Origin: Mytilus edulis
Lineage: Eukaryota
Length of the DNA stretch: 64,000 nucleotides
Reading direction: 5' to 3'
Assembly (NCBI RefSeq): GCF_963676685.1
Contig: NC_092351.1
Location: 25,978,001-26,042,000, forward strand
The translations under genes were made by a program, and so were the position numbers. This document shows positions 5,025 to 8,100 of this stretch, piece after piece. The notes beneath the pieces are model-generated. The model worked only from the letters and a program-made list of their open reading frames with translations, was not told the DNA's origin and made no database searches. How positions within the stretch are numbered: the first letter of the stretch is position 1; the number at the start of each line of letters is the position of its first letter.

Positions 5025-5157
5025 TTACACTTCCTCCCCTTTTCTATCATCATCGTTGAGAAATTCCTCTATGGTCGGGTCATCAGCATTGTCGGTACTC
5101 TCGTTTGGTATTACAGGCACAGTCATGTTAGGTGTGGTGAAAAAGGCCATCTTCTCT
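5025..5157 (-). CDS. WWC1: KIBRA last coding exon, ending in PDZ-binding -GEEV*
   Basis: [47 protein letters not shown]. Confidence 0.92.
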
Positions 5158-8100
5158 CTATAATATATGTAACAAAATAAACTTAGGTATTACAGGCACA
5201 GTCATGTTAGGTGTGGTGAAAAGGCCATCTTCTCTCTATAATATGTAACAAAATAAACTTAGGTATTACAGGCACAGTCATGTTAGGTGTGGTGAAAAAG
5301 GCCATCTTCTCTCTATAATATGTAACAAAATAAACTTAGGTATTACAGGCACAGTCATGTTAGGTGTGGTGAAAAAGGCCATCTTCTCTCTATAATATAT
5401 GTAACAAAATAAACATCAAACTTGATAAAAAAGACTATTTTCAAATCTCACTCATTGTTTTACATAATTTTTTTTTACTGTTTTATGTAGTTCAGCTAAA
5501 GGAGTTGTGTGAACTTAGTTCATAAAATTTCAGAATGCGTGTTTTTAGGTGACCTGTGAATTTGTATAAGCTAGCTATAGACTTGTTCAAGGGCATACAA
5601 TACAGTTACAGGAGAGGCAATGACGTTGCCAACGTTAATTGTTATTTTCGCCATGTCAATCGGTGACTTATCGGGAAAAGATGCAGTTTTTGGCTGATTT
5701 TTATCATTCAAACTGATTTAACTTGAAAACGAGTTTTTATGGACCCCTCTTTTTTAAAATAATATTTCGTTTGATTATGTAAGAAGATTATGTGTACCAA
5801 TTTTCATGAAAACCTAAATAGTGCAATTTTTTTTAATTTGATTAATATACAGCAAAAATTGCATTTTTTTCTACATTCATGAACATTTGAGAAATTTGAA
5901 TTATTTGTAAAACTAAAATGTACAGATATATACATTATTTATATATAACACATAAACTACAAATAATTTAACAAAAAACAGCCAATGTTTATCTTTTAAA
6001 ACAAAAAAGTTATGTATTTCTATCGAAAGGAAAAATATGTCCACAAATTCGTATTTTGAGGAAATATCTGAAATTTGAACCTCAATTTACTCAAAAATAG
6101 CACATGAAGGTTTATTTTTTATCATATATTTGATTTAATCAGGTAAAAAATAGCCTACATGCAAATTTTCATCAAATTTTCAATATGGGATCAAAACTGT
6201 ATCGTATGCTCTTAACAAGTTTATCTATCATCCTTTTATTTATTACTGTGCTATGATGTAAATTTCTGCTAACAACAACGGTTTCCATTTAATAGTAAAG
6301 AAAGGTATTATTGATATCATCCTTCATCTATCACACAAGCAAACTTCTATTCCCTGTTCTATGTACATACAGAGGTAGATATGCTGTAATGATTATACCT
6401 AAAACAATTGTCACTTATAAACAACATTCACTGCAGAATTCAGGAATTTTCAAGAGACAAAATGAGCTATTCTTATTTATTTAGTACCAATATTTGACAA
6501 CATGAATCATACCTGAAGTTTAAAGCATTTGAGTTCGGACTATTCCTCTTTAACATTTGTACTTCCTTTGTCACTTTCTTCATCAAATGTTGAGCTCTTC
6601 TGTCTTGTTTTGTTAATGTTCTCTTCTCCTTTTGAACCTTCAATAAATACAAAACACATTGGTATACATTGTATTATCAACTTGTAAGAAAGATGGTTCC
6701 ACTGGTTTACATATCTTATAAAACTTGTATTGAACTAGATTCATTTGAGCTCGTTTTCTTTTCTTTTAAGCAGTCTAAAAAGGTTTTCACAGGGCCATTA
6801 TATTTATTTATAGTTCATATAGGTTTACAACTTTAGTTTTTAGCGATATAAACTGACAGAACTATGTATATTATACTTAAAGAAACATTTCTTCTCTATT
6901 ATTCCATCTTCCATTTTGCTCAATTTATTAATATTTCTTGTCATGGACATTTACAAGGTAAAGTTAATGTACTCAGCTTAATAATTATGTACAGAAATTT
7001 AGTGAGAATATAAATTGAAATATTTGTGCAATCTTTTCTCAAAAAATGAATACAATGCATGCCCAAAAAATTGAAAGTACAACACATTTCATTTATATCA
7101 AACACATCCAGGTCCTTAAACTGACTATAATAGAGATAATTTTTGCAACTACAATGTAATATCTATTCCATTGAAATAATATACCTATTGTTGAAAGAAA
7201 ATTAAAAATGTTCTAACAATTCGAAGTACATTTTTTTTCTCTAATAATGTCCCCCCTATATACTGGTCAATTTTTGATAAAATATTAACACTGAAGCAAT
7301 CAAAAGACACTCAACTTAATCAAATCATGGCAAGTGATGGTTAAAATGTTTAATAAACAGAATCTAGTTCCATAGAAGGGACACAGTGAGACTCTAGGGA
7401 TGGACATCAAGTGGAAATGTAACGGACATTCTAAATTTACCTCTATAGGTGGTATAGGCCTAACACTAACAAGACAGATTCTGAATACAACTTTCTTTTA
7501 TATGGAAAGCACACAGGAGAAAAATTCTAAAACACTTTACACTCTGTGGATGTTTACCAATTGAAAAACCAAAAATCTTTTAATTGATCAAAGTAAAGAA
7601 TAGGTGCACAAAATAACGCAGTCATATATTGCTAAACTTTTCATTAAAATCAAGACAAGATCAAGAAATATTATACCTCCCCCTTTTAAGGGGGTTAAAG
7701 CTATTCAGAAACTATTAAGACAAATAACAACAATAAAAGTAGTGTTCTTTGTTATATGGTTATTTCCCTGTGTATATTGGATATACCATACATAAAAAAA
7801 ATGTTATAATGCATATGATAGCATTTATATATATTTTTTACGTGAGGGCTGTTACAACATGTTTTAGTGGACATTACTGGTGTACATAATATACTGCATA
7901 AATGGTGATATCAAGTTGTTTAGATCTATTTATAAATTTGTAAAATTTGTGTATCTGTTTCCAATTTTGAAGTACAAATTAAAGACTAGCATGCTCATGC
8001 TAACATTCATTCGTAAATAAAGAAAATTTAAATCATTCATATCATAACATAATATTTATGCAGAGTGTTATAAGTTCTTTTTATTTGTTTTTATATAAGT

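Follow-up and report, generated by a model that had tools for sequence, protein, structure and literature searches.

Repeats that carry copies of an intron/exon boundary form an already described class, represented by the mirages of amphioxus and by the human CBS 844ins68 allele, and they are usually silent. Mirages have been reported for amphioxus Adh3, troponin C, the globins BflGb6 and BflGb9, and PGBD5 (PMC3087553, PMC3902484). In BflGb6, the 3′ end of an intron, together with the 5′ part of the following exon, is repeated, one haplotype having 6 units and the other 3, and splicing is described as undisturbed (PMC3087553). Aberrant mRNA is likewise described as absent for the Adh and TnC mirages (PMC3902484), and somatic instability has been reported for the Adh3 mirage. 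The human allele is a 68-bp duplication of the intron 7/exon 8 boundary, in which the distal site is used and normal mRNA is produced (PMC2630376, PMC1802585); this distal choice is reported to depend on G-runs between the sites. In another system, a silencer-like sequence between competing 3′ splice sites represses the intron-proximal one (PMC2095810). The USH2A duplication c.3812-3_3837dup is reported to disturb splicing, mostly by exon skipping (PMC11311777). Our literature searches found no report on Mytilus KIBRA, none on duplicated acceptors of terminal exons, and none on mirages beyond PMC3087553 and PMC3902484.

Here, we describe a four-copy boundary repeat at the last intron of KIBRA in Mytilus edulis. 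The window analyzed is a 64,000-nucleotide stretch (assembly GCF_963676685.1, contig NC_092351.1, positions 25,978,001 to 26,042,000), to which all positions below refer. KIBRA lies on its minus strand, as do all of the gene features discussed.

Results

The gene and its C-terminus

A large exon in the window was matched at 100% by Mytilus KIBRA. In a spliced alignment, 25 coding exons, from 36742 to 5028, aligned to P0122, a protein record that bears the names of both M. edulis and M. galloprovincialis, and 24 of 24 junctions agreed at 17/17 residues. P0122 contains the Pfam domains WW (PF00397), WWC1 (PF25802) and C2 (PF00168), and the combination of WW, WWC1 helical hairpin and C2 is that of the KIBRA/WWC family. 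On this exon and domain structure we assign the gene to KIBRA/WWC, the identity already proposed in an earlier reading of the DNA without database searches (hereafter, the sequence-only reading). The penultimate exon (6513..6637, phase 2), placed by the P0122 alignment and by RNA contigs in 4/4 runs, is followed by a donor GT at 6512-6511. Translation, homologues and the same alignment place the coding part of the complete last exon, stop codon included, at 5025..5157; this exon has a single match in genome G000. RNA contigs also cover the 3′ UTR (4436..5024), those of run X16 extending past 4300.

The predicted protein ends in GEEV (5028..5039), a candidate PDZ ligand. A G-x-x-V end was present in 74 of the 120 homologues listed (GEEV 20, GAFV 19, GVEV 11, GVQV 8, GQEV 7, GHEV 7 and GQQV 2), a count that leaves out 11 GRKV enders, which are apparent fragments of ~480 residues, and in which many of the remaining homologues look partial. 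In this listing the KIBRA C-terminus is kept across molluscs and arthropods. The Mytilus protein cluster has 21 members, 6 of them unlisted and outside the count of 14 named proteins, and 13 of these 14 end in GEEV. The exception, the M. edulis KIBRA model P0129, ends in ...PNYRGISQR, a tail without relation to the repeat and apparently the product of a last-exon frameshift in a different assembly. In addition, P0122 (1247 aa) includes a 36-nt exon at 8235-8270 that P0121 (1235 aa) seems to lack; an ordinary alternative cassette exon seems the likely explanation.

Human KIBRA ends in ADDV, which binds PATJ (PDZ8), and GVEV is the corresponding end of fly Kibra (PMC3376049, PMC13339755). The mussel GEEV has an acidic residue at -2, as has human ADDV, and may bind a PDZ protein. 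The sequence-only reading had regarded the KIBRA C-terminus as a PDZ-binding motif with PATJ- or MPDZ-type partners; the human and fly data bear out the motif and PATJ, whereas MPDZ does not appear in the review searched.

Elsewhere in the window, broken retroelement remnants lie upstream of KIBRA (37600-46800, with an RVT_1 match at 39249-39887), and two minus-strand exons at 60644-61426 belong to a trypsin-family protease gene (PF00089).

A tandem array at the last intron/exon boundary

TRF reported a tandem repeat at 5107..5414 with a period of 77, 4.0 copies, 97% matches and a score of 581, and a repeat search of the window gave copy spacings of 79/76/77; the k-mer depths of run X1 (see below) also support four units. 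As had been described from the letters alone, each unit is 76-79 bp long and consists of ~25 nt of intron end, closing in TAG, and 51 nt of last-exon start. The four units differ by zero substitutions. They are distinguished only in run length, by one TA and one T: the TA run is long in units 1 and 4 and short in units 2 and 3, and the T run is shortened in unit 3 alone. Because no substitutions separate the units, the array is probably of recent origin. Its occurrence as a sequence repeat goes far beyond what chance would give, and when segment 4900-5700 was searched against genome G000, the array was matched over its full length only by itself among the matches listed.

Other repeats are present in and around the gene. 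A 500-bp array (11688-13998, 4.6 units, 90% matches) lies within the KIBRA intron 14283-11139, and ORF-like text related to it also occurs near 63400-63900. The last KIBRA intron contains a dispersed high-copy repeat (5585-5700, on to ~6220), on which many RNA contigs are stacked; its 5585-5700 part was found at 39 further places at ~90% identity among the 40 matches listed in the G000 search. Two-copy tandem duplications at 54084-54315 (115 bp, 100%) and 61533-61866 (169 bp, 90%) indicate that duplications of this short tandem kind are frequent in the mussel genome.

Tandem repeats with a period of at least 25, other than the boundary array, make up 1.9% of the window, or 5.5% if the 500-bp array is counted, and the boundary array is the sole tandem-repeat case among the 48 KIBRA splice sites. 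Because random placement, by a crude estimate, already puts 0.45-1.3 of the 24 KIBRA acceptors in a tandem repeat, an acceptor covered in this way is not rare at the repeat density of the window, and no special cause is needed for the existence of the array. RNA folding of 5080-5460 detected no unusual structure (z = 0.30), and structure-based masking of acceptors was dropped on this ground. A metagenome scan with a 33-nt exon pattern, an uninformative search, gave 0 matches.

The array is real and polymorphic

Among 24 runs listed, we examined eight in the form of contigs, 4 of them RNA and the other 4 DNA or without a label; uncovered stretches in the contig tables were not counted as absence. 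X1 yielded five array contigs with depths of 6, 3, 9, 5.54 and 9.7, and in the assembled four-copy array the corresponding k-mers have multiplicities of 2, 1, 3, 1.85 and 3.23. The depths equal 3.0 times these multiplicities (RMS 0.0), short T run included, as expected from exactly three molecules, all of which fit one array length and which are too few for zygosity. Rival models gave RMS values of 0.71 (four copies lacking the short T run), 0.84 (five copies), 1.5 (three), 3.5 (two) and 5.1 (one). X1 is identical to the window and has no library record, and it may be the assembly's own source rather than an independent animal; it rules out assembler error at the array.

In X2, the junction contig contains 33 k-mers that are impossible from a single-copy allele, at a depth of 70.9 against 102.6 and 44.6 on the flanks. 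This run carries two UTR differences from the window; it belongs to the same study as X1 under a different sample code, and the two may or may not be different animals. Copy-number models 2/1, 2/2, 3/1 and 4/1 fitted the X2 depths alike (RMS 14-24), and 4 of the 5 best models include one single-copy haplotype. The KIBRA 3′ UTR also has a 29-bp tandem repeat (4833-4896, 2.2 copies), and an X2 depth of 192 over 4850-4896, against ~102 on the flanks, suggests extra copies of it in this run.

An assembly artefact, a concern already raised in the sequence-only reading, is thus extremely improbable. The units are short and near-identical, and X1 offers only three molecules from what may be the assembly source itself; against this, the junction k-mers that a single-copy allele cannot produce occur in both X1 and X2, and the X1 depths match four copies exactly.

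The other two DNA runs are single copy. One 3208-nt contig of X4 bridges 5162 to 5397, with the short TA run of units 2 and 3, and X12 crosses 5107-5160 without the break that carriers show at 5136. The repeat junction was therefore present in 2/4 DNA runs (X1 and X2, of one study), and a single copy in 2/4, so that the array is polymorphic among animals, in line with the copy-number variation suggested earlier. The array allele has apparently survived at least two steps of expansion in spite of a single-copy exon and a conserved C-terminus. With regard to the TA run, the short form in X4 indicates that its length (5158-5182 and 5390-5414 in the window) segregates among single-copy alleles, which hints at inter-allele exchange or recurrent slippage.

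Such variation could be read as a regulated or selected switch, in which copy number or tissue would tune the share of KIBRA lacking the PDZ ligand, the bolder of the proposals in the sequence-only reading; it found no support here, and we consider it very unlikely. Copy number does differ among animals, and human tandem repeats near splice sites are reported to tune splicing (PMC10078293), but an array that is missing from 2/4 DNA runs and has zero substitutions appears young and not conserved, chance alone, at the repeat density of the window, would be expected to place a splice site within a tandem repeat, and a PDZ-less isoform from a proximal acceptor is annotated in none of the Mytilus records examined.

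Reading-frame outcome of the four acceptors

The acceptor AGs, numbered 1 to 4 from the intron-proximal end, lie at 5391-5390, 5314-5313, 5237-5236 and 5159-5158, with first exon bases at 5389, 5312, 5235 and 5157, and for all four joins the donor GT begins at 6512. When the joins were translated, acceptors 1-3 led to truncated tails, and ...KGEEV* resulted from acceptor 4 alone. The intron upstream of acceptor 1 (5390..5391) is the native one and has a YTRAY at -27; a join to this acceptor would replace the last 26 residues with a 19-residue foreign tail (...PHLT*). Acceptors 2 (5313..5314) and 3 (5236..5237) follow the shorter TA run. The join to acceptor 2 would truncate the protein, and the exon copy after acceptor 3 has a T run 1 nt shorter, backed by the X1 depths, that leads to an early stop. 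Acceptor 4 (5158..5159), the most distal, is the sole one before the complete last exon. Translation thus confirmed both the read-through peptide that the sequence-only reading had derived for the first acceptor and its claim that the distal acceptor alone restores the normal end. A stop codon in a terminal exon should escape junction-dependent decay.

Splice-site strength and branch points

Acceptors were scored with a matrix built from KIBRA's 23 other acceptors, i.e. from only 23 introns. Over -20..+3, sites 1-4 scored 7.6, 3.8, 3.8 and 7.6, against a leave-one-out native mean of 7.4; over -40..+3, the scores were 5.8, -1.0, -1.0 and 4.7, against 5.5. Because the middle acceptors score lower on this 23-acceptor matrix, the contest is limited to sites 1 and 4, and site 4 is not favoured by local sequence. 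The AG-free zone is 33 nt long before acceptor 1 versus 26 nt before acceptor 4. The internal AAG at each unit junction was rejected as an acceptor, with scores of -2.1 and -5.4. GGG is absent from the array unit, which therefore has no G-runs of the CBS type.

Each exon-derived part had been noted to carry CCTAAC, a branch-point-like sequence upstream of the next AG. The motif is indeed present (CTAAC at 5206..5210, before acceptor 4, and at 5282-5286 and 5359-5363), but it is an unlikely branch point, its A being 48-50 nt ahead of the next AG, with another AG in between (CCTAAG). Branch points are reported at 19-37 nt (PMC10078293), and CTAAC was rejected for sites 2-4 on this distance (-48 to -50). 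Other TNA candidates are within branch-point range of these sites.

Among donors, the best GT in the array scored 2.3, compared with 5.7-12.8 for the 24 native donors. This bears on the idea of an incipient exon or intron gain, in which a GT of unit 1 would act as donor to acceptor 4. The GT at 5335 would create a 54-nt in-frame micro-exon repeating EKMAFF and a 178-nt intron, with GEEV kept, and mirages have been proposed as a route to intron gain (PMC3087553). This donor, however, scores -2.0, well outside the native range, and the matching joint was absent from the 4 RNA runs, which are probable non-carriers; we regard such a gain as even less likely than a selected switch.

RNA and protein evidence on acceptor use

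One joint only, 5157-6513, leading to the GEEV exon, was found in 4/4 RNA runs from three studies, all of them probable non-carriers. All four have SNPs foreign to the window haplotype, and X16 shares those at 5067 and 5076 with the non-carrier X4. The contigs of these probable non-carriers run unbroken through the unit, with no branch inside and with 5224-5559 uncovered. Because RNA from a single-copy allele would align to this joint as well, the joint cannot tell which acceptor an array allele would use. In addition, contigs drop rare variants, so that low leakage would be invisible in these runs.

Use of acceptor 1 was not observed. The read-through tail was found in 0/4 RNA runs and in 0/14 named Mytilus proteins, both of them weak tests, since carriers may be missing among these sources. 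Exact look-up of read-through peptides found 0/3, with the normal last-exon peptide present; this is weak evidence, as contigs break at the repeat.

Discussion

A probable, mostly silent duplication

We somewhat favour the explanation that the array is a recent, tolerated boundary duplication, expanded to four copies and mostly spliced out through acceptor 4, with GEEV kept. The last intron/exon boundary of KIBRA would have been duplicated by a slippage-type event and then expanded to four copies by slippage or unequal exchange. The spliceosome would join exon 24 mostly to acceptor 4, so that the three additional units would be removed as part of the intron. The distal site may win by virtue of the whole exon that follows it alone, the proximal sites being followed by U/A-rich intron sequence. 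The array allele would have no selected function.

The lower-scoring middle acceptors count for this silent reading, as does the finding that no GT in the array has the strength of a native donor. Also in its favour are an array that is real and derived, with units free of substitutions; the one GEEV joint in the RNA runs, although these are probable non-carriers; the GEEV end of 13/14 named Mytilus proteins; the precedents of the amphioxus mirages, CBS 844ins68 and the silencer-like sequence between 3′ sites; and the apparent persistence of the array allele at a single-copy exon with a conserved C-terminus. Counting against it, acceptor 1 retains the native branch region and scores at least as high as acceptor 4, and the distal choice in CBS needs G-runs, whereas the mussel unit has no GGG. 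Nor do exon-size limits favour the distal site, because the exon is terminal and has no downstream donor. The mis-splicing reported for the USH2A duplication speaks against silence as well.

The main alternative, less probable but a serious one, is a leaky or hypomorphic allele. Here acceptor 1 would take a sizeable share of splicing, and the resulting mRNA, likely to escape decay, would encode a KIBRA protein that lacks the final 26 residues; such an allele would persist chiefly in animals that also have a normal copy. The scores of acceptor 1, its YTRAY at -27 and its longer AG-free zone are consistent with leakage, as are a unit without G-runs that could silence this acceptor and the X2 depths, best explained with one single-copy haplotype in 4/5 top models. 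The boundary duplication in USH2A is reported to mis-splice (PMC11311777), and losing the motif might have only mild effects, given a report that loss of Patj left fly Kibra in place (10.1101/2023.06.05.543736). Against leakage, the published mirages are described as splicing normally (PMC3087553, PMC3902484), and the read-through tail is missing from the RNA runs, proteins and peptide look-ups, a weak point since carriers may be missing among them.

Wild mussels might also segregate a 1-4-copy series where the number of copies would determine how much of the KIBRA protein lacks its PDZ ligand, so that the array would be a VNTR dial on a Hippo-pathway scaffold. Here the proximal products would be stable, decay-escaping mRNAs because the repeat sits on the terminal exon. 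We consider this combination unlikely, although less so than a regulated or selected switch.

If the array is silent, as we favour, it adds a molluscan case to the known mirages, and its chief lesson is one of care in annotation. If it is leaky, the carriers, members of a genus farmed as shellfish, would amount to natural partial knock-outs for the PDZ ligand of KIBRA. The locus also provides a natural test of first versus last acceptor, with four near-identical 3′ sites before a last exon and single-copy alleles as controls, and masking by nonsense-mediated decay is expected to be small in such a test. Duplicated 3′ splice sites were reportedly the subject of classic experiments by Reed and Maniatis.

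Comparison with known systems

The mussel protein has the WW, C2 and WWC1 domains of the KIBRA/WWC family and, like its human and fly members, ends in a valine motif, which is GEEV, a predicted ligand, in the mussel.

With USH2A c.3812-3_3837dup, the array has in common that the repeat crosses an intron/exon boundary and that use of the first copy leads to a stop. Unlike the array, the USH2A duplication is 29 nt long, includes only 3 intron bases and affects an internal exon, and the skipping it causes is not open to a last exon in the same way.

CBS 844ins68 is also a polymorphic, acceptor-spanning duplication of similar size, and its distal site regenerates normal mRNA. It differs from the mussel array in having two copies rather than four, in affecting an internal exon and in having G-runs that aid distal choice, which the mussel unit is without.

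The array matches the amphioxus mirages in structure. Both they and the mussel array are head-to-tail repeats of an intron 3′ end and an exon 5′ part with the complete exon after the last copy, both have units in the 10-160 bp range, and in both copy number varies between haplotypes (6 versus 3 in BflGb6, 4 versus 1 in the mussel). In the mussel, each of the 4 units spans the boundary and carries an AG and 51 nt of exon, the complete authentic exon follows the outermost unit through acceptor 5159-5158, and length varies by haplotype (4 copies in the window and X1, 1 copy in X4 and X12). By its sequence organization, the array can thus be classed as a mirage. It differs from those of amphioxus, a cephalochordate in which normal splicing is reported by RT-PCR, in that its host is a mollusc, in that single-copy alleles segregate in the mussel and in that its array sits on a terminal exon, where the stop of the proximal product falls in the last exon.
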